Assembly: GCF_003704095.1 (NCBI RefSeq)
Contig: NW_020843367.1
Coordinates: 1 to 64,000 of the forward strand
DNA: 64,000 nucleotides
Source: Pocillopora damicornis
Taxonomy: Eukaryota
Direction: 5' to 3'
Made by a program: the position numbers and the translations under genes. The notes beneath the pieces are model-generated. The model worked only from the letters and a program-made list of their open reading frames with translations, was not told the DNA's origin and did not search any database. Below are positions 3,675 to 49,018 of this stretch, one piece after another (the stretch's first letter is position 1; every line of letters begins with the position of its first letter).

Positions 3675-6600
3675 GGTCTGACTTTCCTCTTCTGGCATTT
3701 CCAGAGGAGAAAATAACCAATGGAAAGAGAGGCCTTTTAAAATTCAAGTATGTATCATACAGTTTTTCTTAATCTTAATCTAAATCTAAATCTATTGAGT
3801 CAGTAAAATCACACAACATCACACAAACTCTAAAAATAATAATAACAATAATAATGTTAAAAATCTAAGAGCTTAACATAATACAATAATATAAATTCTG
3901 AATAAAAACTAGTACAGTAGAATATTAAAAACAACTGAGTACCTTAGATCTAAAACTGTTAACAGACAATGTATTTTCTGCCATTAACAATGATTAAGTA
4001 CTTTTAAAGAAATTTTACACTTTTTAGATGAGCAGTTTTATTTTCGTTCAGTTCCTTGTTGACCAAAAGTGAAGTTCACAAAGTAACTCAGCTGCCATCA
4101 TAGTGTGTAAAGTAATAACACCCAACATTTTACTGCATATTTAGTACCTTTCTAAGGCTTGAAACTTAATGTAGTTAAGTTTCAACCAAATTATATATTT
4201 TAGTAGTGTTTATTTATGTTTTGTGTTTATTTACTATGTAAAAGCTTATCGCAATTTAAGCTTAGTTCTTCATGAATTATTGGCTATTGGGGCCAGGATC
4301 GTGGCATTGGCATTTGGTCGTGATAATTACCAATATTGACTGTCAACTTGATAAGTTCAAAATGTGACTGATGAATAATTTGATGCATTTCTGACAAAGT
4401 TTTTTTGGTTTTCCTTACTGTTACAGCTCATGGTGTTTCCAGTTTAGCAGCACTGTATTACCTGTAAGTGGTATTACTGGCAATATCTTCTCTGTCTTTG
4501 AATAAATTTTACCTCAATAACTAAGATTAACACAATTCTAGTCACTGATGGGTAAGGGAGTTGTAAAGATTAATATCATGGAAATGGTTTGGAATTCATG
4601 CAAAAGTAATGTACAGTTAAAAATTTATTTTCCAAGGTCTTGGAAGATTAGGGAGAAGTGTGTTTTTCTTTTAGTTCCAGTATTCCAGTATTTGTGTTTA
4701 TCTTCAAATACCTTTCTAATGATATAATTTTTTGATTTTTGCAGGCAGTAATCACAGTGAGACGCCCTCTTTTTGTCCCAATACCCCCTGTGAGTTTGTA
4801 TTCTCATTCAGTAAAATAGTTTTGAAATTGTAACTTACAGAGGGTGGTTCTGGAAGTAAACTTCTAAGGATTTTCCGTTACTTTCTATAATCTTAGATAT
4901 GTGGGCATTCTGAAAATTTTGCACTAAAGAGAGTTTTGGTAGCTTTTAGAAAGTAGAAGGATTTGCATTAGAGGATTATGCTTTCCTATCAATATTTTGC
5001 CTCAAATACATTCTTTACCCATGGATAGGCCGCAGGTTTTTATTTGAAAAAAAGGGATGAAACTTGGGGGTACAGCTTAATATACACTATTGAAGCATTT
5101 TGACACCAGCATCAGTAAAGTGTTTTTCAAATTGTTGTACTTCTCTATTATTTCAAAATGAACATCACTTTAAAATTACTTTAATTGGTAATTGGTTTCA
5201 TTACAACAGCTACGTGATCTCTGATTGCAATTCACTAATTATTTTTTTTCCACAAACATTAATCAAAAATTTGTGGAGCAGCCCATGCATGGGTGCAACA
5301 TATGTGCTGGTAAATACAGAAAATATTTGCATTCTGACTGTTTTCTAAGTAGAATATGATATTTTCATTTCTTGAGTTAACACAACCCCAGCTTACCATT
5401 TGTAGGTCACTTGACCAACTGTTACAAAAGGCCTTTTCTGATAAATTGTTTCCTTTGGTTTGTTATTTATAAGTTAAGAAAAGAAAAACTCAGCACATCG
5501 ACAATTAAGTTTTTGGCTGTCAGTTTGAGATAAACAATCAACTAATATTATAAATGTATAGTTTCCAGCTTCAGATAAGTAATGAAACAAACATTAAGTT
5601 TAGACTGAAAGCCAAAAGCTTCAGATTTTAAGATTGACTTTTGCTCAAAGAATGGCCTTTTATGGAAAGATGAATTTCAAGTCCTAGTTGCTCTTCTATT
5701 TTAAATCCACCAAAACTTGTTTATCATAAAGGAATGCTATTATAATAATAAGACAATGATATAAAGAAAAGTTTTTAAAACTGTTTCTCTTTTCGATAGC
5801 ATGTTTTAGGAAGTGGTTGGTGGCAGGACTTTTCTTGGTCTTTGTTTGTACCATATACACTTTACAATATAAGGTGAGTTCCTTCAGGGGCCAGTGTCCC
5901 ACAATGAGGGTATATTTTTAAAGAAACAGTGGTGCTGCATCAGTAAGGGGGAGTAACAAAGATAATTTGGGTTAACTCCCTCTGATTCTCTTTGCTTTAA
6001 AAAAGGGCTTACTCCTAAGGGATCGATCCTTATGAGCTCCCAGTGAAATGAAGCCTTTTTGTTATAACTTTAATTAATTATTCTGGTTGAGTTTTCTGCT
6101 CATATAGCAGATGCCTATTTTAGCATACAAGAGAAATATTAGCTCAGCTCTTGATTGCTAATCAAAAATATTCATATCTTTAAAATCTTTTTGTTGTTTT
6201 ATGCCATAGATATTTTCATTCATGACAATCAATATCAGTACCTTCTAATTTATCTTTTTTCCCCAAAATCCTGTGGATGATCAGAAACCTTTTTTAATAC
6301 TTTTTTGCAGATTTCTTCCTCCAGTAGAATCCAAAGTAGAATCCAAAGCAGAAGACATTTCCAGTGATATACAGAAGGTGTGACACTCCTCCACCCTGGT
6401 CTTATATTTATTTTTTATTCCTAAATTACTACTAAAATACAGCAAAAGAAATTTGTCAAAAGAGTTGGACTCAGTTGTTTGAAATTCTCAAAGCATAGTT
6501 TCCTACATTGCATGTAAGTTATATATACCCTAACCCATTTTTAACATGATGCAATTCATGGATAAATTTCTCCGATGAGAGCCGATCAGATTGCAAGGAT

Positions 6601-9006: not shown

Positions 9007-10314
9007 GACTAGGAACACTGATGATCATAATTATTTTGTGTTTCTTGGAAGTCACCTGTTCCATACTTCACTTTAAAGTTTGTTTTCCCTGAAATACATG
9101 TTAGTTTGATAGGGTATCCTAGTCCCCATCTTTGTCTAGCATCTTTTGCTTCAAATTTGTAGTTTATATATATTTATCATCCATAATTATTATTTTTATC
9201 TTCCTGATAATTCATACTTAGTCTGGCAGATCTATGAGTTTACATTGTCTTTTCTCCATATCTGACTTTTTACTTGTGGCTTGGGGTTTTGTGTGCTTCA
9301 AGTATGTTGTGTAATGCCAGTTGATATTTAATAGAAGATGACTTAATTTTTAGAACAAGTAGTTTATGAATTGCTCCCTATTAATAATTTTTCACACAAA
9401 ATCCAGAGGGATGCACTAAGTGAATTGATTTTAGGATAAAGTTTGTCATGTACCTAAAGTATGTGTACTTGACATTCTAGCTGGGTGATAGACTTGGAGA
9501 TAAATATTGGAATGCATACTGAGTCAAGAAAAAATAGTAACCTACTGGGTAAGCAACATGTTGGGTATTGTTAAGAATATTTTTTCAGATTTCAATGTAA
9601 TGTTGTCGGAATGCATTGACCAACACCAACATTTAGTATTATAGAATATTCACTTTTTTAAAATTTCAAAAGATATCAGGCACATACAGTGTAAATCTTC
9701 AATAGGACCTCAATAGAAGTGTCATTCTGTTGGGAACCAATAAGAGCTAGAAAGCCAACTGGCCTTCAAAACTCCTTACAAATGAGAGGGTGAATAGGGT
9801 TGTCTATCATTAATAATTATTCCTATAATAATTGATTTTCCTAAGAGTAACTAGAGTATAAATGTTAGTAGTAACAGGTTATATTATTAATAGCTGCATA
9901 TTAACATATTTATGAAAAGTGAATCCTACTTGAGCAGAAAGCAGGCCTAAAAGTATAGTTGGGTTTGTGAGATGAATAAATGCATAACCTAACCCTTTCA
10001 AGTTATTGTTGGATGTTGTAGTGTTTGCATAATGCAAACATTTTTTTTCAACAATCAGGGCTGGGTCTCCTTCCAGTAGTGTTTTTGAATTGCTCCCAGT
10101 TTGACTCCTCAAAACATCGTGATCAAGTATTTACAGTAGAACCCAACCAACTAACTAAAACCAATTAACTATAACCAACTAAAAATTGCTCCCAGTTTGA
10201 CTCCTCAAAACATCGTGATCAAGTTTTACAGTAGAACCCAACCAACTAACTGGGTTTATTTTAATCAATAAATAGTTTAATCCGGTGTAAAAGGAGTCCA
10301 TGCTATAGGTAAAT

Positions 10315-10614
10315 GAATAAAGGAGTAAGTTCTAAAGAAACTGTGGTGCTGTATTGGTGGGAGAGTATAGCAGGTAATTTAGTGTTAACAACTGAGTTGA
10401 AAACGTAAATTAGCCACCATAAAGGGTAAAAAAGCTGATGTTTCAAGCGTTAGCCCTTCATCAGAGCGATTTGTTGACGATTCGTCAGAGCCCTCCTTCG
10501 TCGATTCGTCAGAGCCTATCACTCTGACAAAGGACTAACGCTTGAAACATCAGCTTTTTTACCCCTTACGGTGGCTAATTTACATTTTCAACTCAGTTGT
10601 TAACACTAAATTAC
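10315..10614. mobile_element. Palindromic hammerhead-bearing dispersed element (other copies at ~14433-14629, 25791-25966, 35388-35634, 39683-39908, 44693-44906)
   Basis: About 95-bp inverted arms (GTAATTTAGTGTTAACAACTGAGTTGA...GCCACC...AAAGCTGATGTTTCAAGCGTTAGCCCTT) plus a unique tail (AAGAAACTGTGGTGCTG..GGGAGAGTAT), recurring six times. Confidence 0.75.
10434..10467 (-). ncRNA. Minimal type-I hammerhead ribozyme motif in palindromic repeat
   Basis: Minus strand: GCT-CTGATGA-A-GGGC-TAAC-GCTT-GAAAC-ATC-AGC; helix I GCT/AGC, core intact, AUC site. Confidence 0.6.
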
Positions 10615-11644
10615 ATCCTATAGGTAGATGCAAATGATAAATTAGTTTAGGTAATAACATGATTAGGAATTTGGCTTTAATAAGCCAATACCCCAAGTCA
10701 TCCTTTTACACTTAACTAGCAAATCATGTGAAGCTATGCAGAGCAAGGTTTGCATACTAAGTAGGTACCTTCGAGATATTTACACTTTACAAAATCATTT
10801 TCTACCTTAAATTTCGTAGTCTTCCAACTTGTGTTGATGAAATATGCACTGATTTTCAGCCAATCAGAAGCACTCAGTTTTTTATGTACATTATTAAAAG
10901 TATTTATTAATCTTTTCATCCCCAAGACTTCATTAGTAATTCTCCTTACTGTCTACCATACAATTCTTGTGATGTGAGTTTGGAGAATTTGGTATTGTAT
11001 CAACTAACAATCCCCTAATTAATATTTTTCATTTTCTCATCACTTGTCTGCTTGATGTTGGATTGACATTGTAAGGGAGAAATTCTGTCTTGTCACTTAT
11101 GGGAGTTGAGGGGTTTTGACTTTCACATTTACATAACTCCAGATGATAGACAGCCAGTGAAGTGTATGGTCCTATGTGTTAGTTGCTTATAATCATCTCA
11201 TATTCAACAAGCATGTGTTTATGCTCATAGTAACTATTACCAATTTTTAAGAAAATTAAATTGAAATAAAAAGAAAACAAAAGAACCTCTTTGGGGGAAA
11301 CCAGCAGTGATATGACAATTTAAAAATTAAAGTAATTTTTTCCTAAGAATCAAAGTTGTATCATTTGTTAACTTTTTAGTTTTCTCTTTCCTGATCTATG
11401 CCACAACTTTTCATAATAACAAGGGTTGGATAAATTTGGCAACATTGTAAATCCATCATTTTCTGGGAGACTTATAATTACTAAAAGTTAATTAACACTG
11501 GACAAAACTCAGAAGAAACTTGAAATATAATTAAAATTTGGCAAGCATTAAAAATTTAAACTTCATGTATTGAGTTCTTGCTTAAAACTGTTGGCCTATT
11601 TAATGTTGGAATTCTATAATTTGTCTGATTTTAAAAGCACTGTC

Positions 11645-14600
11645 CTATGATTGAATAATTTCATTAAATAATTCTTCCACATATGACTTAAATTCTTCTT
11701 TATCTTCAACATCTGGAAAGCAGCAGAGACAAAAGTGTGATCTAGAATCACCAATTCTTGACTGTCCAGCCACAATGTTTTTAAAATGTGGGGTACTTCC
11801 TTGAACACGAGCAATTTGCTTTTCATCAGATGTGTCTGATTGCTTGCAAACTGTGTTAAGTGTTCTTTCACAAGAGTTGTCCCTTGTGATCTCTGTTTTA
11901 TCACCAGGTAAGTGTTGTTTAGAAGCTAGACTCCTCTTCTCTTTGCCACTGCATTCAGAATAGCTCTTGATGCTGTGTAGATTGTCCAGAAATGCCTTCT
12001 TCTGCTTGTTTAACTGGGCTGCCAAGAACTGAAGCTCTTTTTTCCCCTTTCCACTGCCTGCATTGGTAATATTTTAGGAAAATAGAGCAATTTTACCAGT
12101 CATAGAGTGGATAAAAATTTTAACAATAATACCAATAAATATTTTTATTGCAATTATTATTATTATTTGCAAGGTATTGGAATACTTGCATATGGCTGCC
12201 ACTGTTCAAATATGATTATTTCTGATCTAACAGATAATTTTTCCTTCTTAAAATATAGAAAAATAATAATAAAATAATAGAATAACCTCCCTCTCAGACA
12301 GTATTAAGAAATTAAACATTTCCCCCCTTCTATCTGCACATCATTGTGAGGTTAATCGAGCAGAAACCATTTGGTTTACTGAGAAAGTTTTTTTTTTTTA
12401 GCTTGACATGAAGTAAACATAGTGCAATAAAACATGAATGAACCACTGTAATTTATTTGGGAATTGGAAGGAGAATCCTCTAAGTGAAACCTGTCCCACA
12501 TTAATTACGGTTTAACACACTTTCATGACTAAAAGCATCAATTATTCAAATTATATCATAACTTACTGGTACTTGTTCATTAATATTACAATTTTTTTGA
12601 AATTATTTCTATGCGATGGAGTCAAAACAATATGCAATGCATGTTTGCACATGTTTGTGATGTACAAAAACACAAAATAACCCATAAATACCTTTATTGG
12701 GATTATGCAAATGAATTTGAATAGGAGAACAGAATAATTTGAAGTAACTGCAATTTTTATATCACAGAAGGAAGACAACTATCCTCTGCCCTCCAGTTTG
12801 GATCCAGTTTTATTTTAAACCTGACATGACAAGTGGCATGTAATTCTTAATTTCTTATTGTTAAAACCTACCTTTTGCCTCAGAGATAACCTTACTGACA
12901 TATTTTCTAAGAACCTGGTCAGTCTGATGGACAATGCTTGTTATGCATGCCATTCTTGACTTTTCCTATAAAAGCATAAAAAGAGAGCCTCTACTACTTA
13001 GATAGCTTCCTTAGGTTTTTAATTGACTAAATTTGCACTTGTTTATTGATTTCTTAATTTGAGATAATACTTCTTAAAGCAGTAGACTGCATTTTTTATT
13101 GGTCTATCGGTATAATAACCCACTTGAGATGTAAATCACAAGCTGGAGTGATGTACAAACTTCTTTTGTGTTCTCCCAACATCTCAATTGGGTTATTATG
13201 CTGGTAAACTGATAAAAATGTGAGGCCTATTGCTTTCATAAAATGTATTTCAATTGTTGTAATCTTCTATGGATTTACCAGTGCAATAAACAAAAGCTTT
13301 TTTGTTTTTTTACCAATCTAGTATATCAGTTATTTATGAAGGCTTATAGTATCTATGGATGAGCAAAACAATGATTATGGCTCTGGCTTTACTATTAATC
13401 ATGATCATGTTGTCAGCAAGGGGTATTGTAATTTTCTCATTGATTGATTAAATCTCCATAAACAAAGAAACATTATTTTGTGAGCAGTACAGGTAGTCCA
13501 GAGTTCAAAATCCATCAGTCACAGTTATAAATATTCCCACCTTTTCCTCAAAGTCCTCCACACATTGTACTGCTGGGTGCTTCAAAGCCTCTCTAATAAG
13601 TAGAGTCACACTCTCCCTTACGAAAAAAATTTTAAATAACATACATCACATCACATAAGAATTTTCAGGCATCATTTATTATTAAACTGTTATCATGAGA
13701 TGTATCTTAAATAAACCTGATCCCACTCTGAAGAAAGTCCAGTCTATAAATAATTTTTTCTAAGTATTCGGAGAAATCAGTTGTAAACCAGTCTTAAAGA
13801 CTATTTAAAGGTGTCGCCTCCTGTAATTCCTTTCAAAGCAATTATAAAAATGAATTTAAAAATGAATAAATGAATTTAAGTCATTTTTAGTGCATGGCCC
13901 CTTTTTCATATAAACAAAAATGTCAATCATTGATATAGAGAAAAGCAATGAATTCAGAGAGGAGCTAAACCTTCTATATGATGCATTCACATTATGAATG
14001 GACTCTTGTGAGAATTTGGATGTTGTGGAATAAATGCAATATTCAAATCTTCTCAGCGGATCAACCTACATTATTTCAATATCCCATTGTACTTCAGATT
14101 TAAATGTGACACTGAACTGCTCCCAAGGAAACTTATCAGGCTCAGGAGGTTCCATTTTACTAAACATATTCTTCATAGTGTCTGATGACACTGGGTGGCT
14201 CCTTAAGTTGTTTCTCTCCTCTGCAATTTCAAGTGGACACTTCAAGAACACTTCTGCAAACCCAGCTCTGTCTTCCTTGAAACAAAACAGTGACAGCTGA
14301 AACACTCTTTTTCAGTATCATAGTAGTAACCAGAATTTTATTGGGTGTGGTTGAAGTAGTTCTGGACAATTTCTTTGGATGAGCCAAGTATTACATAAAA
14401 CAATGGATAGACTCGGAACTTACCTAATAACTTGGTAATTTAGTATTATCAGTGAATGGATATTATGTAAATTGTCCACCACGAAGAGTTTCAAAGCTGA
14501 TTTTTAGCTTTAAAACTCTTCAAGGTGGCCAATTTACATAATACCAACTTCTTTATAATACTAAATTACCCTGTTATACTCTCCCACAACGCAGCACCAC

Positions 14601-15942
14601 ATTTCCTTTAGAAAGAAACCCCCTTTATTAATTTATCTAATGACTGGATGGAGTATGGGCAGCTCCCCAGAGAGAAGGGGTGTCATCCCAAAGAGTAATG
14701 TACAGGATAGAGTAGGGTTGCTGCTACACAAGTCATTTAGAATTTATATATCAAATTCTAACAGTCTTTGCAGGAGTTGATCATACAGAACATATCTCGT
14801 AGTCCCCTTCACCAAGTACAATAAAAAATCTTAGATACAAGTTTAAAAAGGTAAAATTCCTTCTTCCTTGAAAATTATCAAGTTTCCCTATCAAGTATGG
14901 TTGAACTTTTTTAAAATTTTGTAATTTTTAATTGATTTGTATTAAGTATGTCCATTCCAGCAACTACTGTACCAATGTGTGGGGTGAGACTGGGACAAAC
15001 TGATCAATTCTTGAAGTGGAGGAGGATGTGATCCTAAATCAAATATCTCTACCTTTAAGATTTTGAGAAGTTGGCCTCTCTGTGTAACTGCATTGTCTAT
15101 CATTTAATTCCATGCATACCAGTACCTTTGGTGTAGGCTTAAAAGACCCCCCTATGTGTACAGTTTACTTACATTTTCTTGCTAGCTGGACGTATTCATA
15201 CCGCATACTGTGGTAAAACATATTGTCATCCACTAAAATGACATGAGCACTACCATTCCACCTGTAACAATGAGAGTGATATGCATGAGGGTTAAATCTT
15301 TAGCCTTGAAAAATCATTGATCTATAAATGATGGGATTCTGGGCAATTTCAGGTGGCAACCCCAAGCAAATCCGCTGGCGTAAGTCCGTGGTCTTAAAGC
15401 AATCATGGCATGGGATGAAATACGTACGTATTTTACCTCCAGCTACTTGAACCACTCTCAATGCAGGAACACTTTCTGTCTTTCTTAGATATGCTTCTTA
15501 GGAAAATGCCCCAAAACTCTTGAAAACCAGACAATCCTTCCATCTTCAATTCAACTGCCTCAAGATTTGATCCGCTTCCTTCATCTCCATTTCCACATGG
15601 ACTATTTTGTAACAAATTCATAATTTTTTCGACTGCTTCGAGTATGTATTTTCTGTGCTGTTTCCATAATGAGTAGTTCTCAAAATTCTCTAGAGTCTCG
15701 CTATTACCAACCCTGTTTTCGGTTTCCATTTCCAAACCGTTTTGAGCTGGGTTTTCCGTACTGCTACCATACAAGTCTAAATCAAAAGGAATTAAGTCAT
15801 CGTAACACACATATATTGTGTGAAAAGAGCCGTCCGTTATTTCATGCACGTATTTATGCAATATTTTTGCAAATGTAGACTTTCCAGCAGCAGGAATGCC
15901 ACAAATTAACATTACGCCAATTTGGCCACTTTCGTCCGCCAT
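11645..15942 (-). CDS. PSTK: L-seryl-tRNA(Sec) kinase; exons 15942-15437, 15261-15173, 14271-14070, 13616-13541, 12965-12872, 12057-11645
   Basis: P-loop ICGIPAAGKST, YVCYDDL, VILVDDNMFYHSMRYEYVQLARKY, FLKCPLEIAEERN, MEPPEPDKFPWE, IVHQTDQVLRKYVS are typical of PSTK; splice phases are consistent. Confidence 0.9.
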
Positions 15943-21615: not shown

Positions 21616-24600
21616 TCATCTATTATTACCCGGTGTTCTGTTGCCAGATAATGCAATCAAATAATATAGAACACCAAATATGAAACCCCCCATATGTGCT
21701 GCATGACCAATGCCATCTGCAGAGTATGCCACAAATGTGCTAATGATTCCTTTACCAGGAGTTGTACTGTCTAATAGAGGCACCAAGTCACTCAGAAGAA
21801 CTGTGATTACAAGCCCCAAATGGCACACTTCATACATCATTTCTTGCGTCATCTGATTGTCCCATTCTCGATCTGCTATTCCTAACCTTCGCCGCCTTCT
21901 TAGTTCAATGTATTTGTCATATAAGGAAACAATATTTGCACATGTCTCAATGGCAACAATAGAACAAATTGCTGCACTGGCACCTTTGCACGATGTTGTT
22001 CCATGAATTGAAGTAAAGGCTTTATCAAGAGCAAACTTTTGCAAGATGTCTGCTTTGTTGCCCAAGAAATCCCCAAGAAGACCCCAAGAATTTGGTGATG
22101 GTAGAACAGTCTCCCAGCGGATTTTTTGAAACATGTAGAAACAAAACTGGGTGAGATTTCCAGCAACTCCACCCCCAAAGAATGCTGCCAATAAATGCTT
22201 TCGACCAAAGCGTCTATGAACATGGTAACCATTTGGTATGAGAGTAGCAAAGTTATTGAATAGGTGCTGTTCATCTATGAAATAAAGTCAGAAAAAGAGA
22301 AATTAACAAACATTGCAAAGATTGAAGGGTTAAGCCCCCTGTGGTACTTCTAGAGCTGTTGTCCGGTTGCAAGCCTATACACAAAGCTCTAAACAAGTGT
22401 TGAGCATGAGTTACGCAAGCAGTAGGTAGGCAGAGAAGTAATGCCCATGGCATACTAATGATTGTGCTCTTCTGCTCACAAAAGTTGACTAAACACAATT
22501 TCTCTAAACCCAGTTGTAAGCAATCCAAGTCAAACATTCCCTCTGAACAATGAATCTGTTAAATATCTTCAGTCTTTCCTGAATGTCTGTCTCATTTGAA
22601 AATGAATAAAGGGCTTCCAAAGAATGTTATTGTACCTTTAAGAAAGTATTGGTTCTTGTTGGTGAGAATAGTGATGTCAAGTATATTGGATAGCTATGTC
22701 TAAAAACACAACAGGGTGAACAGGTATTCTCTGCTCGCACTTGCCAGCTGCTTGCATGACTAATACTCACACTCCATGCAGACTTCAACATGTTCTCAGA
22801 TAAAAAGCAGAAAAATAACCTTTGGGCATAAGACCATATATCGAAATAAATTGAATATTACAAGTAAAAAGTAAACAACAAAACAAAACATGCTAACAAA
22901 TACCAGAACACCTAAAACTATTTTTGGATAAATCTTCTTTTCACGTGTCACCAAAGGAGAGTAGAGATACAGTGACAGACCAGCAGAGATGCAGCAGCCT
23001 TTAAACCTGGGGATGAAAAGCTTTATTTCCACCCATCAAACAAAGGTGAAGGTTGGACAGACTTTACATTCACAGAGATCTTACATGGCTGCGGCATAAT
23101 AATGTCTGTGCTCATAAGCAACCATGAAACATCACACAATCCACACAGAAAGGATGTACAAACTTCCAATTTTGAGAATTGTAACTGATAGCTGTTCATA
23201 ATTTTTCTCACACTTGAAGCACTCTACTCATTTATAATTATGTTGAAATATTTATCTCACAGTGGAGGTTTGTGGGTTTGTGTTTGAGTAATGAACACTC
23301 TTTAAATCATAGGAAGCCCAAGCTCCAGCTGTAAGATCATCATCTTATGAAATAAGAGTCATGGCAAAAATATAAGAATTTGTATAGGAGTATTTACAAC
23401 CACTCTTAGGAATAAAAAATACAGTCAAATTCTCAATGAAAATACCTCACCTTACTTCCACAGCAAATCGCTTGCTATCTGACTGCTTACTATGTTGAAA
23501 AGAAGCCATTTTGGCAAGTCATCCATTTCTAGGTTTGCTAAGGTGAATGTGTACACAGGCTGTTAGACACGTCTAAACTGGAAATTTTTCAAGCAAACTG
23601 CATTGTAGCATCAATTTCATGGGGAAGATTGAGTTTGTAGTGAATTGAAATTAAACTAGAGTATATGCACTTGGATTATGCATTGGATTTGTGGCCACCT
23701 GGTCATTTTGAGCTTGGGTTTTTCACTTCTTGGATCAGGTGTTTGGAAATGGAGTGTGCAGCCTTGGGCTTTTCTTATGTACGTAGTAAACCTAGAAATG
23801 GATAATTTGCCAAAATGGCTTTCTTTCAACATGCTAAGCTGTCAGACAGCAAATGATGCACTGTGGAAGTAAGGTGAGGTATTTTCATTGAGAATTTGAC
23901 TGTATTTTTTATCCCTAAGAGCAGTCGCAAATATTCCTATACAAACTCTTATAATTTTACCATGACTCTTATTATGCAAGGTAATCATCTCACAGCTGGA
24001 GCTTGGGCCACCTGTGGTTAAATCAAGCTAAACACAAATCACAGCATGCAGTTGTGTTTGATGAAGCCAATATTTAGATCAAAAGAAGGCCAAAAGGGTA
24101 CATGAGTTAAGAATTCTGACTTTCTGTCCGGTGTGTCTCTGAGTTATGTCAAGGTTTCCACGAAATAAATAAATTATTTATAGCAGTAGAGCAGTTAATG
24201 AATATTTATACTTTGGCCATGAACTTCAAAAATTGCATGCCATCACATGCCAATCAAAACAACATACATTGAAACCACAACATGGTATATGTTGGTAGCA
24301 TTTGCTACACGTTTGTAGCTCATTGTCAGACTGAAAAGTTGAAAAACAACAGTGATCATTTGCGCTACTAATACAATTTTCACAACGATCGATTTATGGT
24401 TGTTGCATCACCACATTTGGTTTTAAAACCCACTTCACTGTAAAGTTGAAGACGAAGGCACAAAGTTCATGAGGTGAATACCATAGCTTACCTTGGTGAT
24501 TGAAAAGGTTCGTGACAAGAGTGTGATATCGTCCTTGAGCGAGATTTTCGGGGGAGAAAGAGAAGTGATCTTTCAGAGTTGCACTCGACATGTTGAATAG

Positions 24601-36965: not shown

Positions 36966-39900
36966 ATGGCGGCAACAACGAATTGTGTTGAACATTGGGG
37001 AGAACTCGATCCTCCTTTGCCAAAAACAGCCGGCCTACACGTTGAAATGACGGAGCCTAAAGCTGCAGATTACGAAATACCAAGACTGCATCAGCCATCT
37101 TCGGAACACTTCCCACCAAAAGACGAGTAAGTGAGAGAAGGTGGACTTGGTTAACAGACTTCAGTTGCTAAGCTCGGTCGATAGTTTATCGTCAATTTAA
37201 ATCAGACGATTTTAACAATGAGATAGAATTTAAAGAAAAGTGTATATCTATTTGCTTTTATGACTGATCTGTTTTATTTTATTATAGATTGCCAATGAAG
37301 TTTATGGCGTCTGTCAAACCGCCACTTGATAAACACTCACAGAACCTAACACTACACTGTATTGAACTACAGCATCACAAACGACGTATGCGCCTGATGT
37401 TAATGGCAGCCCAACATCAACATGGAGAGGGAACGGTACAATGATAGACTTATTATTATTGTGNNNNNNNNNNNNNNNNNNNNNNNNNNNNNNNNNNNNN
37501 NNNNNNNNNNNNNNNNNNNNNNNNNNNNNNNNNNNNNNNNNNNNNNNNNNNNNNNNNNNNNNNGCTGAAGCTATAGAAAACAACTCAGAAATCGCTCATG
37601 GGAAGCAAAGAATCTGATTGCTGGTCTGGAATATATTGTTGACAATTTTAAAACATGTCATGTAAAGAGTACTGCGGTCACAGAATTTACGGTCAATTGG
37701 CATTAACATTAAGTTTGCAATTGTACTTGTTTTTGAATCCCAAACCCTCAGCTATAAGCCGAACCCCATTTCTTATGAAAAATCTCCCAAACTTTTGTGT
37801 CTAATACTGAAAAAATTGCTTGGCTTATAGCTGAAGAAATATAGTAAGTCTGAGAGGTTTTCTGTCAATTCATCCAATGATAAGCAGGAAAAAAAAGCAG
37901 CTGTTTGAATTTGTTATAAGTGTCACAGTTTTTGTTAGGTAGAATGATTCACTGACAATACCCGTATGCATCATTTCTGTTGCAGCCCTCATGAACCTCA
38001 TTCTGCCCTTACATGTGCAGAGCTAGACAGTGCTTCCAACAGACATTTGTTGATGAAGTCAGTAGCTACCTTATGTGCTCTTGCAGGATTTGATAGTGAG
38101 TTTTTTATATTTGTTATCATAAATAAATATCATCATCCAATTATCTGCTTTTTCCTTTCCTTCCTGTCTTGTGCCATGTTTTGTATACCTTCCAGTCCTC
38201 ATGGGTGTTCATCACTGATCATGGCAACATACTTATAAAACATTAGTAGTGGCATTTGCCAATCACCAAGTGTGAATATTAAACATTCTTTTTAAGCCTT
38301 TTGAAGCCCTAGTTGATATCAGTTTGTTTCTTTGCCATTCCAAGATCTGATTTGGTTTTTTAATGTTGAGACCCCTCTAAATGACTCATGTGAACAGCTC
38401 ATCACCACTGCCACAATCACTACTTTAGTAATATTGTGTCAAAAAACTAACAGTGCAAATGACATGGTATCACTTCATTTAAGATACAAATTTGTTGGTT
38501 TTTCAGTGGCCAGTGAATCTTCTCTGGAAATACTAACAGACATCCTAGATGACTTTAACACCAAGCTCTGTCGTCTTTTGAGAATGAGTGTTGATAATAA
38601 TGCATTAGGTGGAAGAACAGGTTTTCCAGTAAGTCAAACGTTAGCCAGTAAGAGCAAGCTCTTATTCATGTTTGCCACAGTCTTATTTGTTTTCAAAAAA
38701 ATCAGGTTTAAAACTCAGAGGTCATTTTAGAATTTTGAGGCTAACCATCACTGTAGGCTTAATGTAAGTTATTAACCTAGAAGAATATATACATTATTTT
38801 ATTGATTATGTGTGATAAGATTATTTAAAAGTTAGCATCATCATTAACCAATGAGAATTCAAAGTAAAAAGGAATACTGCATGAAGTAGGAGAAAATGCA
38901 AGTAACAAAGTTGCATTTGGGTCTAGTTTTACGTCTGATTGGGTGAGAGGTTAGTGCAAGTCTTCTGGATCAGTCTCAGTTTGAGTAAAGTGAACAAAAC
39001 CACAGCAGTCCTTGATTACTTGCAACACCCAATTGAAAATTGATTTTTTTCACAGCAATGAAAATGCAAGGCTTCTACTATGTTAACAGAATTTCTTTTC
39101 ATAGAATTATTCGATCTGTGTATTCCACACAGGTTAACCCTTTCACTCAGACACAAGAACTGATTTTTCATTCTCTTGCTATATATACATTTTCTTGTTA
39201 AGTAGTGGGTAAAATTTGGTGTTATATCAAGAAAACATGCTCTTGCTAATATTTTTTTATTCTTGTCACCTAGTTGCCAAATCATGTACCAAAATAGTTA
39301 GGAGAAGTCACAAATCAATCACTTCTGGGAGTAAAGAGATTAAAATGTCTGGGAAAAGGAATTGAATTGGAAAAAAAATGAAAGATGGTTAAAATTACAA
39401 GTTTGAATGATCAGGGCTTTAATCATTAGAAGTTAGATTGTGGATTTCACATGGAAGTTGTCCTGATAAAATTAGGTCTGAGTTTTTCATGCCATGCTAT
39501 GTAGGATGCCATGGAGTATGCTCTGCATGAGATTGGGTTAGGTGGATGTGCTGCTATCCATAAGTACTGGGTGCAAGGAATACAGGATTATGCTGTAAAA
39601 CTAGATCAAGAGGATATGGAGATGATACAGGAATACAAGGCTTTGATTGTAAGCATCCACTGAATTTGGTACATGTTGTTAAGTATTTATCAACTAAGTT
39701 GATAATGTGAATTGGCCACTGCAAATAGTTTCAAAGCTGACATTTGGAGGGTTAGCCCTTCATCATTCACTGCTCTTACAAAGGGCTAATGCTGATACAT
39801 GAGCTTTAAATCTCTTTCTGGTGGCCAATTTATGTTATCAACTCAGTTGATAATTCTTAATTACCCTGTTTAATACTCTCCCACTTATGCAGTACCACCA

Positions 39901-41912
39901 TTTCTTTCATTCAAATGAGGTAAATTATTCATTATTCATTCAAATGAGGTAAAGGTACTTGTAGCTTATGTTCAGTATGATGGATGTATGCGCCAATATC
40001 TTTGTTGTCTTTAATTTTTCTAATTAAAGGGAGTTTATTAGCAATCCTTGACATCATTTTATCTCTCAAGTTTTCTTATCTTGCATCACTCTTAATCAAA
40101 TGTTTGATCTTAAAATTACATCTCTTGATTGTTATTCCGATTGGATGAATGATCAATTTTCCCGTAGATTATCATTTGTTTATTCAAATTTATTCTGCTA
40201 TCCCCTTTAATGGAAAAATTGCTAACCAACAGCTGAGAAAGTACAATGTTTAAAGAACCATCATACTTCTCTCTGATGGATAGTATTTTTCAGGCTCTGA
40301 ACAACCAGGGAAGAGGTTGTAATGACTACCCTTGTAAAAGCAGCATGTGCTTATCTTTTAAATGGCACATCCAACAATCATGGCTAAAAGTAAATGGAGT
40401 GTGTCGGTGAAACAGATGAAAGAAACTATTTATGTTTATCAGTCAACAATCCTTCTTTCATCTGGTTTCTCTTGCAATTTGTTGAGGTCATCTAAAGATT
40501 CAGAATGATTCAGAGTAGACATGAAGCAATTATTTAAATGTTGTTTTCCCTCTCTGAAATTATAATTGAAATAGCTACAAATTGGTTGTTCTTCAAGATA
40601 AAAATTTGATCATGATTTTTATACTGAAAAATATGAAATGAGGGTCTCAATCTTGAAGACTGGATAGTCATTTTTGCCTCATGTACACTATTAATATGAA
40701 GAATTTATAGAACTACAGTAAGCCAGGATAAAAACTCTAAGAGAACTTTGTACTTTTTCACAGGATCCATCAGCTAGGAAATCTGCAACGGTTTCTAGTG
40801 GAGGAAACTCTCAAGGATACATGTGAGTTTATTTATCATTACAGCATGTGATAGCATTGACTAGTGCTTTGGCTTCTTCACAGTTTTCCAAAAAGAGCTG
40901 GATGTCTTGTTTGGTTTAATTTTATAAAGATAACTCAAAGGAAACTAAGTCATTTTAACTTGGGGAAGAAAGCCAACTGAGTTGGCACATGCTTGTTTAA
41001 ACTGAATAAAGAAATTACAAAATAAAGTGATTTGATTGGTTTTCCTAATAGTCACATTCATGACATCTCTCTTCACCCTCAAACATTAATGGGTACCAGG
41101 AAACTTTAAGGAAAAATTGAAGACAAGGATAGCATCAAGGCATCCCATCCAGGAGAAGTGGAAACCATTTTAAATTAGTGACTTCATAGTGCAGAAACCA
41201 GGTTAAATGCTAGCAATCATGGTTCACAAGCTCTGTAAGATTTTAGCTTCTTACCCTTAAGAGAGGCTAGCATCTAATTTTTCTTTGTAGTGTCACATGC
41301 ACCCCTGAGTTAAACATTAAGGCTGAGAGAATAAAGGAAAATTTTTGAAAAATTCTCAGTGTTAGCACAATAAGAAATGTGTATAGAATGGTATAGAGAA
41401 CAGGTATACTCATGTTAGGTTGTAAAGGGTTAAACTAATTCTGACTTTTTCATTTTTCCTTTCCCTCAGAGTCAAAGATGAAGTGGAACTGAAAGGAAGT
41501 GGATTATCATGTAAAACATCTGTTGGGGTGAGTGTGCTTCAGGGCCTAAGGAGTACTGTTTCAACCCTTTAACTTCTAAGAGTGACTAGCATCTAATTTC
41601 TCCTTACAATATCGCTCCAAATTACACAATAAGGTCATGAGAATTAATGAAATGATCACCAACTAAAGAAGGTCTTGATTGTTAAACAAATTATCCTAGT
41701 CAACACCTCAGGAAATGTACAGAGAACAGTATGGACACTATACATACTGGTGCTAGGATGTAAAGGGTTAAATGACTCCCTACTTCATCAGGCTTCAAAC
41801 CTTTTATTAAAAGTTACTGTTTGTTTCCCTTTTTGATTGCTGTGTGATGTCTATTAAGAAGTCAAACACAGAACAGAAGCAAACAAGATGGTTTACAGAG
41901 AAAGAAATTTAG
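36966..41912 (+). CDS. SUPT7L: SAGA/STAGA subunit SUPT7L (STAF65-gamma); exons 36966-37126, 37288-37435, [gap], 37986-38095, 38507-38628, 39505-39648, 40764-40822, 41470-41527, 41859-41912 (last exons tentative)
   Basis: HWGELDP, RLHQPS, LTLHCIELQHHKRRMR, histone-fold LLMKSVATLCALAGFD/ASESSLEILTDILDDFNTKLCRLLR, GRTGFPDAMEYALHEIGLG match the recalled SUPT7L layout. Confidence 0.82.
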
Positions 41913-43988: not shown

Positions 43989-44692
43989 CGATTCTTATGT
44001 TGAAGGCATTTTATGTCGAGCAGATATTGCAAGCTACTAACTGAATTGATTTTTTTTATGAAGTTCTTCGTTGAAGTTTCCGTATTTCTGTGGTAGAATT
44101 GTATCGTTGTAAATTACTTTTCCGAAAGGAGCCCACTGAAAAAAAAACAATTATGAGGCAGGTGCCTGGATGAACTGCATGATTAATACAAAAATGTCGT
44201 GACAAGACCTGCATTTTAAATAGTTGTAATTGTTAGGGTAGCATTCTTTAATTCAAGTTAATATTTCACTTAAAAACCACGAGAGAAAACAAGGCTTCAC
44301 ATTTTGGGTTTATTTTAGTCAGCCTTACCTTTTACCTCTTCATTGTTAACTATTTCTGGCGCAGTCGGCATCAAGACAAAATTAGTATCTTGCAAAAACT
44401 TTCTGGTATTCACCTGGTAACAATAATGTTTTCGTGGACAAAACAAAAAAGCCAAAGTGGAACTTGCTAGCAATTAAAACAACCCTCTGGCTATATACCC
44501 CGTCAACCGAATAATTTCAAAGAATTTCCATCGAAAAATTCGTTCATATTTAGGAGTATCAATTGTTGTTTAGGAATATCAAGCGATTCCAAAAAATGCC
44601 TATGTCGTGTTCGTATGCTATATGCCTGTGAATTCTGATTTTGGGCTTTTTCCTTATTGCTTTTTTCTCTTTTTTATCACAGCAAAGTAGAC

Positions 44693-44906
44693 TTAAATTG
44701 GCCACCGTGAAGAGTTTCGACGCTGAAGTTTCGAGCGTTAGTCCTTCGTCAGCGAATGGCTAAGGGCTAACGCTCGAAACGTCAGCTTTGAAAATCTTTA
44801 CGGTGGCCAAGTTATGGTACCAACTCAGTTGATAATACCAAATTACCCTGTTACACTTTCCCATCGAAGTAGCACCACAGTTACTTTAGAGAATTACCCC
44901 CTTTAT
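44693..44906. mobile_element. Least CpG-decayed copy of the hammerhead palindromic element
   Basis: Minus 44722-44755: CTGACGAAGGACTAACGCTCGAAACTTCAGC; plus arm AGGGCTAACGCTCGAAACGTCAGC; same tail as the other copies. Confidence 0.7.
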
Positions 44907-45929
44907 TTGCGCGTCATTCTAGCCTATTTAGTTTTGGGAATTTAAAGGAAAATATCGGGGCTGTCCTGGTGTACCGGTACACGGGGGAATTCCTATTGTT
45001 TTCATATCCATACATGGAGTTGTGACGCAGTTCGTTAATGTTTCGTTCCTTTGTGTACCGGTACACGAGGACACAACCAAAATATCCATCGATCGTAAGT
45101 TTACCTTACTCTTTTAACATATGAAGACTGTGCACTGATCATACTGCTACGAGAAAATAGTTCTCTGAAATTATGAAGCACTTATTGTTGGCTGTTATAA
45201 GTTTTGATCAAAGCACTCCTTCTCTTATCGCGAATTCGGAGTAAAAAGGTGTTCAGATTCCGTGGAAACTGGTTCTTTTGGTAAGCTATGCTCCACCTGC
45301 TCTTGGAAACAATGTTAATCGGTTTAGTAGAAGAAAAGGTAATTGCTTTTGTTAAAAACTGATATCTGTTTATAAACTCCGTGGTAGTTATACCCTTCTT
45401 TTTCCAATCCTTTTTAGTTTTCGCTTGGGGTTGATCCCATGCATAATTCAGCATCAAGGAAGAATTCCTTTATTTTTAAGTTTAGCGCGGTTAACACCTT
45501 TTTCTTCCAAGGTGGTTTTATTGTAAACAATTTCTTCTATTTATCTTCCGCACTGAATTTACAGCCACGAGGTTTTTTCGAAGTGCACGTAGCTCGTTGG
45601 ACAGTCTCTTCCTACTCCAACTTCTGTTTTTCTTAATGTTACATGAAAGCTTTTAAACGCTGTTTTTTCCTTTAAATCGCCTATATTGTCTAATTCTAAT
45701 TTCCTCAGTAGATATATCTCGTTTCTGTTTTGCCGGATCTTAACTGAGACTGTATGAAAATTCAGATGAAAAGTCACCTTGTGAAGAGTCAACATTTTGA
45801 ACAAAAATGTTTCAAAAGCAAGATCGACTTCTCGTGATTCAACGCGATTCGTTAACTAAGTGGAGTGATGGATAAACATTGACAGCTTAGTTACTATCAC
45901 CTTTATAAACAGATGAACAGCATATTCTT

Positions 45930-46500
45930 ATCGAATTGACTCCCCCATCGTCCGAACAAATTCTTGCGATCGGGCTCTCTTATTAGAGGTCGTTACCTCC
46001 CCGATCGACAAACAAAATTGTTGCGATAGGGAGCTCTTGGCGGAGCTCGTTGCCTCCCCAATCATCCAACACTGAAACTTGTTGCAATTAGGTGCTCTTA
46101 ACAGAGTTCATTGACTCCCTGATCGACCAACAAAAATCTTGCTATCGGGAGCTCTTATCAGAGCTCGTTGACATCCGGATCGATAGACAAAGTTCTTGTG
46201 ATTGGGAGCTCTCATCAGAGCTCATTGACCCCCCGATCGACAGACAAACTTCTTGCGATCGGGAGCTCCTATCAGAGCTCATTGACTCCTAAGTTGACTG
46301 ATAAACTTCTTGTAATCGGAAGCCCTCATCAGAGCTTATTGACTCCCCCATCGTCTAAATAAATTCTTGCGATCGGGCTCTCTTATTAGAGGTCGTTACC
46401 TCCCCGATCGACACACAAAATTGTTGGTATTGAGAGCATTTGTCAAAGCTCATTGACTCCTTGATCGACCAACAAACTTTTTGCGATCGAGCTCTCTTAT
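45930..46500. repeat. ~57-60-bp degenerate tandem repeat with GAGCTC-TTATCA-GAGCTC core
   Basis: Recurrent GATCGGGAGCTC..ATCAGAGCTCATTGACTCCC; ~45936-46020 is duplicated at ~46339-46425. Confidence 0.8.
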
Positions 46501-48018
46501 CAAGTGGGTTCATGTCTTTGACGTAGACTGGAAGCCAATGGGAAAATATTTTTTGTATCCATTGAGCACAAATGAGGGTTCTTCTCAGCTGTTGCCTCGA
46601 GATGTATCTTCTAGTATCCTTTGCGCTCTGCTTTGATGAAATTTAAAAGGAGTGCCATGTTTGTGTAGCTGTCCCCAAAACTTGAACTGTGGTCACGAAC
46701 TCTGTTTCTTAGATCTGCTGAACAGGAGACAAAGATCCTTCGATGTATCGTATATAGCAGAGGGTATTTATCTTTCCTCTGTTAAGTTGTAGATACTGCC
46801 TTGTATGTGCAGAGATTTTTTTGATTATATCAGAACTTGCTTTACCTCTGAGATCCAGGCACAGAATGCTTTCTACTGCATCCCAAAAAAGCTCCCATCA
46901 AAAGCTTATGTGCTCTAACTCTGCAGATGAAAGACTTAATTTCGAGGAGCGTGATTGTGGAATAAAAGAAATAAGACTGGGTTCTGTAGAAATATCTTCT
47001 ATACCACGTTCTTGAAATTTCATGACTATTGCAACTAGAAAATTAAACGCGAAATGAAATTCTCCAAACAATTCATAACCTTTTTAAGACTCCTCAGGGT
47101 GTTTCTACTGAATTTCTTTTGCCTTTGTATATAGAGCAAGATCGACGGTAAGGTATTTTTCGAGTTAACAACGTCTGCCATTTATTCTTTTCCTTTTTTT
47201 TAATCATATTTCACAAAATCACGTTTCTTCTTAATTTCCTTAGCAACTGTTGCTGTGGTATCGGTTCACCAACCAGCCAAAATTTTCCTGGACTTAAGTT
47301 TTATCTCCCCTCGTTTTGGAACACATAATTATTGGTACTTCCAAAGCACTTCAAACCCCTTCCCCCCCCCCCCCCCCCCCCCCCCATAGCAAGTCACTGA
47401 CCCCACAACTTGTGACTACGACTGACGTAGCGATAATCTGTGGGTATCAGCCTATCAGCCTATCAGTCTATCAAACCTCTTTTGTAGGGGGTGCTACGAG
47501 GTCGACTGTTTTTGGCTTCGCATCGAATTAACATGCTAAATTGAAAATTAAAGCAGTTTTCTTCTTGATCGTGAATTTTTTTTTTGATCAAATTAATAGC
47601 AACTTGTCCAAAGTAGTTTGCAAAGTTCAATAGTAAATTTTCACGACGAGAAAAGTTCTCATTATAAAATAAGGTCGCCATGAGGAAAAGAGATGATCAA
47701 CTAACCGTTATATTTTTGGTGAATCGCTTGCAATGTGTATCATTTCCATACATATTCCCAACATATATGGAAATTTATTGCTGGATACTTATTTTTTTGT
47801 TTTAACATTATGAGACAGTACACCATGTTCTACAAATATGTTCAGAGTGCGCGTCAGGGTGCAGGCGAAAGTTGAGGGAGAGCTTTGGTACTTTTTCGTA
47901 GTAACTGAACTTCAAAACTTCCCAGTGAAAATCGATGCTCGAAAAGCTCTTGGAGAACACGAAGGCGTTGCAAAATTTATTGTCAACTATGCTATCCGCT
48001 TTCATTTATCCCACTGTA

Positions 48019-49018
48019 ATGTACCCGAAAATTTGTACTGTTTTTGTTGTTCTTTTGTTGTTATCAATAGGAGAAGGAAATAGTGATCCCACCTCACCCC
48101 AGTGGGGAATGTCATACATTAAGGTAAGAGATTAAAGTATTAAATAAATGTATCGTATTAGGAGTTTTGGTGTGTGGTATCGCTGAGTATTTTTACGAGT
48201 TGTAGGTGAAGCGTCCACGTTATGTCCATAACATGTTCCATACATAATACATCCCATAATGATACTAGGTATAACACTATTCATGTGTGGTTTACAATGT
48301 GTCCCATTGACGTTGTTCTATCATGTTAACCCCCATCTAACCTTAGAATTAACCATGTTATACCACATTAACCTTCAACTACCATAAGTTAATCATGTTA
48401 TACCACATTAACCCCCAACTACCATCAGTTAATCATGTTATACCACATTAACCCCCAGCTACCCTAAGTTAATCATGTTATACCACATTAACTCCTAACT
48501 ACCATAAGTTAATCATGTTATACCACATTAACCCCCAGCTACCCTAAGTTAATCATGTTATACCACATTAACTCCCAACTACCATAAGTCAATCATGTTA
48601 TACCACATTAATCCCCCAACTACCCTTAGTTAACCATGTTATACCACATTAACCCCCAACTACCCTAAGATAACCATGCTATACCTCATTAACCCCCCAC
48701 TACCCTTAGTTAGCCATGTTCTACCAGGTTAACCCCCATCTACCCTTAGTTAACCATTTTCTACCACATTAACCCACACGACGCCGAACTAAACAGGGTC
48801 TTGATTGTTGAGCAAATTCTCCTTTTCACTACCTTACAAAATGGATAGAAAACAGTATGGAGAATACACATACTGATCTTAGGGTGTAAAGGGTTAAAAG
48901 GAAGACTCTTGCTAGTTACATTAATACATATTGTTTTGTTTTCTTACAGACTGAAGGTGAAGAAGATGAGTCATACGAGGACCCAATGAATGTTGTTCCG
49001 AAAACGCCACAGTCATAG
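48019..49018 (+). CDS. Putative 57-aa secreted acidic peptide (exons 48019-48123, 48950-49018), possibly frameshifted
   Basis: Signal-peptide-like MYPKICTVFVVLLLLSIGEG, strong AAG|GTAAG donor and TTTTCTTACAG acceptor, acidic TEGEEDESYEDP. Confidence 0.4.
48325..48775. repeat. 39-bp minisatellite, about 11 copies (TTAACCCCCAACTACCATAAGTTAATCATGTTATACCACA-like)
   Basis: Directly visible tandem periodicity. Confidence 0.9.

Follow-up and report, generated by a model that had tools for sequence, protein, structure and literature searches.

The stretch of DNA analysed here (the window) comprises the first 64,000 nucleotides (64 kb) of Pocillopora damicornis contig NW_020843367.1. Within it, an AUP1-like gene, whose CUE and G2BR matches both lie just under the Pfam curated cut-offs, and a PSTK-like gene, which is KTI12-like, converge on each other, and between them sits an asymmetric insertion of the 3′ end of a Penelope-like element (PLE), with two arms arranged head to head between target site duplications (TSDs). 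Its parts are given below, where positions within an arm are counted from C3 of the hammerhead core (position 0) and L096 is an ORF-bearing copy.

10299 to 10311, no strand: left TSD copy, 13 bp, read from the sequence, one mismatch to the right copy
10312 to 10613: the head-to-head, asymmetric PLE 3′-end insertion, flanked by the 13-bp TSD
10312 to 10471, minus strand: long arm, the PLE 3′ end from −7 to about +152, 93.6% identical to L096
10312 to 10372, minus strand: one-sided tail, about +92 to +152, missing in the other arm (the 3′ ends of the family are two-peaked)
10316 to 10321, plus strand: AATAAA, antisense of the tail end, candidate poly(A) signal; a host AATAAA lies 49 nt upstream
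10434 to 10467, minus strand: minimal type-I hammerhead, core letters kept, with C11.1 to T and G16.2 to A
10472 to 10517, no strand: junction filler, 46 nt, with two re-copied pieces of the core start
10481 to 10491 and 10505 to 10515, minus strand: the re-copied core-start pieces within the filler
10518 to 10613, plus strand: short arm, the PLE 3′ end from −6 to about +89, 90.5% identical to L096
10521 to 10554, plus strand: decayed hammerhead, G8 to A, with breaks in helices I, II and III
10614 to 10626, no strand: right TSD copy, 13 bp, read from the sequence

An earlier, sequence-only reading of the locus had described inverted arms bearing back-to-back hammerhead-like motifs, a mutated G8 in the plus arm, and two partial cores on the minus strand of the spacer, and all three descriptions held. 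An inverted-repeat search of the window returned arms of 105 nt (10366–10470 and 10518–10622) that are 91% complementary and enclose both motifs, G8 of the plus arm is A, and the partial cores start at 10481 and 10505. The asymmetry, the exact span of 10312–10613, and the 13-bp TSD did not figure in that reading. The same reading took the minus-arm core to be intact and its helix III to be palindromic; the CUGANGA, GAAA, and UH letters are indeed present, but G16.2 is A and C11.1 is T, two changes common to both window arms relative to young family members. In both arms the helix III stretch has gone from ACGT to ACAT and is no longer self-complementary, such that the change at G16.2, which is of the CpG type, removes the palindrome required for a dimeric helix III; the plus arm carries, in addition to the change at G8, breaks in helices I and II. 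Over positions −7 to +90, CpG-type substitutions account for 4 of 5 changes in one arm and 5 of 9 in the other. Judged by these letters, both ribozymes of the window copy look dead and likely are. The long hairpin that had been proposed was recovered when the whole insertion was folded, on either strand, with predicted energies of −168 and −182 kcal/mol, as against −9 kcal/mol for the isolated hammerhead motif, and a hairpin of this kind would sequester either ribozyme. Given the head-to-head layout, the antisense arm would always be transcribed first and would capture the ribozyme arm, which makes the suggested cleavage of host pre-mRNAs unlikely.

Contigs that start from the last exon of the AUP1-like gene reach positions 10359–10371 in three of three runs that were of RNA or guessed to be so, thus entering the first 45–57 nt of the window copy, and other contigs cover 10641–12056 on the PSTK side. 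Together with the AATAAA that the tail supplies on the AUP1 strand and the hairpin predicted on both strands, this could be taken to mean that the window copy has been co-opted to cleave or regulate the 3′ UTR of AUP1 or PSTK, whether by ribozyme activity, through a dsRNA hairpin, or with its AATAAA. We regard co-option as very improbable: neither arm retains an unbroken helix III, the arm on the AUP1 strand has also lost G8, the substitutions resemble CpG decay, the contigs carry no strand, end, or level, and the host has its own AATAAA 49 nt upstream of the one in the tail. A contig joint from 10453 to 11511, seen in two runs (X13 and X17), one of RNA and the other of unspecified type, skips 1,057 bases that include the spacer and the short arm; it is likely a deletion allele, and the skipping of 10454–11510 hints at alleles that lack half of the window copy. 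Just to the left of the window copy lies a 96-nt direct duplication (10088–10183); contigs from three runs of RNA or presumed RNA lack it.

Seven copies of the family, five of them palindromic, were found in the window, where at least six had been claimed. Apart from the copy described above, they are as follows.

5908 to 5976, minus strand: tail fragment of the same PLE family
14427 to 14630, no strand: older palindromic copy without a core, between PSTK-like exons
25791 to 25950, plus strand: solo copy, older, core letters complete, tail region interrupted by a short insert
35389 to 35636, no strand: older palindromic copy, short arm on the minus strand and long arm on the plus strand
39687 to 39907, no strand: older palindromic copy, strongly decayed
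44691 to 44907, no strand: older palindromic copy with a shortened minus arm

The gene context given for these copies stood in part: the placement of one copy between the AUP1-like and PSTK-like genes and of the 14.4-kb copy between PSTK-like exons was reproduced, and the placement of others within SLC49A3 and SUPT7L comes down to exon-like frames beside the 35.4-kb and 39.7-kb copies, which we take to belong to those two genes. Unselected stretches totalling about 391 kb held 25 insertions of the PLE family, including the seven in the window, from which the family can be extrapolated, very roughly, to 10^4 copies. First-look candidates numbered 3,169 for the window element and about 100 for the RT part of its parent.

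Several other repeats were observed in the window. A larger inverted repeat at 23302–24022 has 239-nt arms that are 85% complementary and that do not match the PLE family of the window copy. Another dispersed family, present in both orientations with ends near AACCCTTT, occurs at 30826–30956, 41246–41772, 48787–48898, 55135–55479, and 60143–60789 and is, we presume, possibly a piggyBac-type MITE. Tandem arrays lie at 45900–46530, 48292–48818, and 26563–27293; their periods are 57 nt and 40 nt, besides an irregular ~42-nt repeat. The sole Rfam match in the window is an isolated tRNA-like sequence at 29495–29566 (minus strand, 30.9 bits) between transporter-like exons, which is suggested to be a tRNA pseudogene or the head of a SINE.

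The hammerhead motif itself is much more frequent than chance would provide. Its core pattern matches eight times in the window against 1.19 expected; genome-wide, the exact 31-nt intact core occurs 571 times and its reversed control 0 times, and looser cores occur 1,566 times against 1 in the control. Five motif families share an invariant core while their helix sequences differ, and helix II forms 4–7 bp in 26 of 28 motifs and helix I 3–5 bp in 20 of 28, these motifs having been picked on the core pattern. By this pattern of conservation, the motif at the family level is a real hammerhead. The Rfam hammerhead scan that had also been proposed was of little use, as its models do not score the window motifs (no match at E up to 1) and are uninformative for minimal motifs. 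Among 16 unselected arms that cover the core, a complete motif was kept in only two.

The earlier assignment to an abundant, Penelope-associated class of minimal type-I hammerheads held. Some family copies run on upstream into a reading frame, and the unit found in the window also ends ORF-bearing PLE copies. At locus L042, an RT (PF00078), a CX2-5CxxC linker, a GIY-YIG domain (PF01541), a 3′ UTR of ~100 nt, the hammerhead, and the tail follow one another in line with one frameshift, and the hammerhead begins about 100 nt past the ORF stop; the window copy itself has no ORF. The RT match in the parent reached an E value of 3e−7 (L042/L141), and the GIY-YIG match reached 5e−5 in L027 and 3e−4 in L042, of which the former passes the Pfam cut-off of 22.6 with a score of 23.9 and the latter, at 21.4, falls below it. 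The linker preceding the GIY-YIG domain and two cysteines inside the domain are visible in the frames of L042 and L055, and the corresponding Neptune/Nematis linker and cysteine motifs are defined in PMC8557442. From its translated frames, the parent is an endonuclease-bearing PLE with a Neptune/Nematis-type linker.

No intact full-length parent was found, and the copies that reach furthest 5′ in the ORF have no upstream tail in direct orientation; in a search for a tandem pLTR-ORF-pLTR junction, 0 of 71 long ends continued into shared sequence, many of the long copies breaking at assembly gaps. The longest 5′ parent copies (L171, L174, L175, and L176, ~1501), of which L174 and L176 are one duplicated locus, share a start just before a splice-donor-like GTAAGT, and L172 and L173 (~1500) begin close by, at an AG preceded by a stretch of pyrimidines. 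These positions may mark a transcript start or an intron.

The first 100 of the 571 exact cores fall in 88 loci, and the architecture of the insertions was surveyed in 80 of these, which yielded 81 insertions; as the sample was chosen on an intact core, the 5′ ends of the main arms are forced upstream of the core. Arms were classed as long when they end at +138 or beyond and as short when they end at +82 to +105. An inverted partner was present in 49 of the 81 insertions, and 43 of these pairs combine a long with a short arm, none combines two long or two short arms, and six could not be classified. Both types also occur singly (18 long, 10 short, and 4 other among 32 solos). Among the 30 ORF-bearing loci, 17 have the long and 13 the short of these two 3′ ends; six also show an inverted 3′ end, in every case of the opposite type. 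One long (~+150) and one short (~+93) arm were thus found in 49 of 49 classifiable pairs, ORF-bearing copies included. In four of these six (L034, L036, L052, and L054), the inverted part is short, beginning at +11 to +70, and lies opposite a main arm whose start is at −186 to −1003.

The two arms of a pair tend to carry the same variants, and these haplotypes vary among palindromes. At eight polymorphic sites the arms mismatched in 21 of 323 comparisons against about 40% when permuted, and among 24 young pairs they mismatched in 0 of 192 against 20.4 ± 2.8 expected. Such concordance fits equally a single RNA, two transcripts of one source locus, and later gene conversion, among which it cannot tell. 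A second PLE family in the genome likewise has two 3′ ends, at about +104–113 and +136–149, and includes two inverted pairs of the long-plus-short type (L182 and L191); the short arm of L191 is interrupted by an insertion of the first family, that of the window copy. The window also has, at 30101–30445, a remnant of a second PLE family, in which a frame that presumably resembles a GIY-YIG C-terminus is followed by a minimal hammerhead, now decayed, whose helix II is longer.

The 5′ ends fall within −11 to 0 in 68 of the 81 main arms. In the second PLE family they are scattered without a tight cluster, and four copies of a third hammerhead family (L192–L195) start, by eye, about 12 nt before the core. 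Templates cleaved by the ribozyme would place 5′ ends at +28, and we rejected them as the source, as a start was found there in 0 of 18 unselected segments outside the window and in 1 of 15 window segments. A lariat branch point behind the 5′ cluster was also dropped, both because a branch-like motif is present in one variant only and because priming from a downstream exon could presumably not cross a finished splice. A cap-type extra G was not apparent at −8 (2 of 38 junctions), and G occurs at −9 or −10 in too small a number of cases for a judgement.

TSDs were found in most palindromes: 39 of 49 reached a TSD score of at least 10 (38 without L127, whose TSD is an internal repeat), compared with 0 of 300 random pairings; the TSD of the solo L079 is a run of N. 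TSD length and microhomology were taken from 21 insertions with exact anchors, a set from which the window copy was excluded by its one mismatch. TSDs measured 10–16 bp with a median of 14 (17 of the 21 strictly anchored insertions). Microhomology to the target averaged 2.35 nt at the short end against 0.55 ± 0.26 when permuted (17 insertions), and at the long end it was barely above chance (1.71 against 1.12 ± 0.18, maximum 1.82).

Where the arms meet, the junctions are variable. Genome-wide, 134 tight back-to-back pairs were found, and by our own count about 31 of the 50 listed among these 134 have an 8–10-nt loop on a perfect stem, a configuration that leaves one arm without the start of the core. 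This recurrent loop type is found in either polarity and is not confined to one subfamily. In L002/L106, L012, L078, and L100, as in the window copy (10472–10517), the filler consists of the first 10–30 nt around the core copied repeatedly, which could be due to RT slippage at the template end or to repair of the polymerase-theta type. Of the 43 long-plus-short pairs, 14 have a short arm that extends further 5′ than its partner, 17 have a long arm that does so, and 12 have level arms; in L065 (−71/−81) and L092 (−36/−35) both arms are level far upstream.

The sequence-only reading had interpreted these copies as a mobile, non-autonomous family whose transcripts carry a ribozyme whichever strand is read, which amounts to a palindromic element moving as one piece, in the manner of a MITE or a retrozyme. 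A self-contained element of this kind would fit the preponderance of short, ORF-less copies (in 68 of 81 the start lies no more than 11 nt from the core), the recurrence of the commonest junction, and the existence of non-autonomous PLE derivatives (PMC8557442; 10.64898/2026.07.22.740005), and a short non-coding source RNA for the monomer remains conceivable. We nevertheless consider it improbable. The ORF-bearing PLEs end in the same unit and obey the same ends and the same long-plus-short rule, the junctions differ among copies with the recurrent type present in both polarities and in different subfamilies, the TSDs vary from 10 to 16 bp, unlike those of a DNA transposon, the arms are unequal, and no tandem arrays occur in the 80 loci. 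A ribozyme on either strand likewise finds little support in the arms themselves, in that most palindromes keep a single full core start (one arm only in about 31 of the 50 listed tight palindromes) and that a complete motif persists in 2 of the 16 unselected core-covering arms. Two specific candidates were rejected: a MITE, which needs equal terminal inverted repeats, a fixed TSD, and a uniform size, where this family has unequal arms and TSDs of 10–16 bp, and the coral CMITE, whose internal consensus in the available text of PMC2872659 is unlike the window copy when compared by eye.

We propose instead that the palindromes arise by twin priming from two fixed sites. The endonuclease of the element would nick both target strands about 14 bp apart, and one nick would prime reverse transcription at an outer start site (~+150) and the other at an inner site (~+93), on an uncleaved RNA. 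Both cDNAs would usually run to 5–10 nt before the core, which is probably the 5′ end of the RNA, and their free ends would then be joined through 1–2-nt microhomology or re-copied filler, after which the inserted copy would decay neutrally, mostly at CpG. To a stricter reading, in which such priming is obligatory and involves a dimeric enzyme, one uncleaved RNA, an outer or an inner site for each nick, run-off before the hammerhead, and joined ends, we give an even chance of being correct. The twin priming of L1 offers a partial parallel, in which the second nick primes internally and yields an inverted 5′ part within the TSD; in L1, that inner site can lie anywhere and there is no overlap between the parts, whereas the Pocillopora family uses a fixed inner site and its two parts have about 100 nt in common.

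Several properties of the proposed mechanism have been described for a PLE protein from Anolis (PMC11167929), which in vitro nicks and extends both target strands, uses two internal RNA start sites that bound the tail on an RNA that is uncleaved and for which ribozyme cleavage is not needed, and is predicted to be a dimer. Its start sites are alike on the top and bottom strands, and the available text of PMC11167929 thus does not itself yield the long-plus-short rule.

The main alternative to two-site priming is snap-back self-priming, in which one cDNA or an antisense template bends back near the core and acts as its own primer, the resulting hairpin then being cut by the endonuclease at both tail boundaries. 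Published proposals of this kind are self-priming on an antisense template (PMC3846280) and endonuclease-mediated resolution as the origin of the tail (PMC8557442). Recurrent short-loop junctions and full concordance between arms are expected under snap-back, which could cover the 17 pairs that have their loop on the long arm, and the arms of L065 and L092, level far upstream, are in its favour. In 14 of the 43 pairs, however, it is the tail-less arm that carries the junction, and since a copy of a tail-less arm cannot contain the tail, plain snap-back fails for these pairs unless a long hairpin is trimmed later. It is also at odds with L034, L036, L052, and L054, in which the arms start hundreds of bases apart and no symmetric junction is present, and with the coincidence of the tail boundaries with RT start sites in vitro (PMC11167929). 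Snap-back followed by endonuclease trimming is a possible fit to the recurrent junction; as an account of the family, we think it rather unlikely. As for the window copy, it probably arose when the hammerhead-plus-tail end of an endonuclease-bearing PLE was inserted head to head by priming at two nicks; it has since decayed, and both of its ribozymes are likely inactive.

The layout of this copy is already published: PLEs typically have inverted pLTRs placed head to head, a tail on one side only, and a TSD (PMC3846280, PMC8557442). With the endonuclease-bearing (EN+) PLEs in the available text of these two papers, the Pocillopora family shares an RT with a C-terminal GIY-YIG, heavy 5′ truncation, an inverted partial copy at the 5′ end, a tail on one side only, a variable TSD, and palindromic junctions. 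It differs in its longer tail (about 55–60 nt versus 30–40 nt), in its longer TSD (about 14 bp versus 8–10 bp in A. vaga PLEs), and in that most of its copies stop 5–10 nt before the hammerhead core, unlike the EN+ PLEs as far as described there. Dual minimal hammerheads 100–700 bp apart on opposite strands, along with thousands of solo motifs, have been reported from metazoan PLEs (PMC4209133); relative to these, the Pocillopora helices are short (helix I 3 bp, helix II 4 bp), the cores are 0–60 nt apart, and the window copy has lost the palindrome. With the Anolis Poseidon PAc (PMC11167929), the family has in common two internal start sites roughly 100–150 nt past the core that bound the tail, and copies that include the uncleaved hammerhead; the Pocillopora parent differs in its Neptune/Nematis-type linker, and the available text on PAc reports neither one start site per strand nor palindromic products. 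Coral and vertebrate non-LTR retrozymes (PMC7229834; 10.64898/2026.07.22.740005) are likewise short, non-coding, and PLE-related with a type-I hammerhead, and thousands of minimal hammerhead motifs have been noted in a coral genome (PMC7229834). Those retrozymes form head-to-tail arrays, which in corals have canonical ribozymes and circular RNA, whereas the Pocillopora copies are dispersed, solo or head to head, and bear the minimal motif; no unit-length head-to-tail tandem arrays of the retrozyme type were present in the 80 loci.

Searches of a literature that lay mostly outside subscription turned up no published version of the two-site twin-priming model, although Penelope papers of 2004–2008 may hold similar counts or models; the origin of the inverted repeats and one-sided tails of PLEs is described as unresolved in the available text of PMC8557442. 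As a ribozyme finding the window copy is worth little, being decayed and of a published layout, and its value lies in the data set. From the long-plus-short rule (49 of 49), the variants shared between arms, and the 14-bp TSDs follow precise predictions that the in vitro assay already in use for PLEs could address. With many palindromic copies near genes, the family could also be a putative supply of dsRNA hairpins and antisense poly(A) signals in the host. If two-site twin priming is correct, the inverted pLTR, the one-sided tail, and the TSD would all arise in a single step, and the model would replace the self-priming and endonuclease-resolution proposals for the structure of PLEs.
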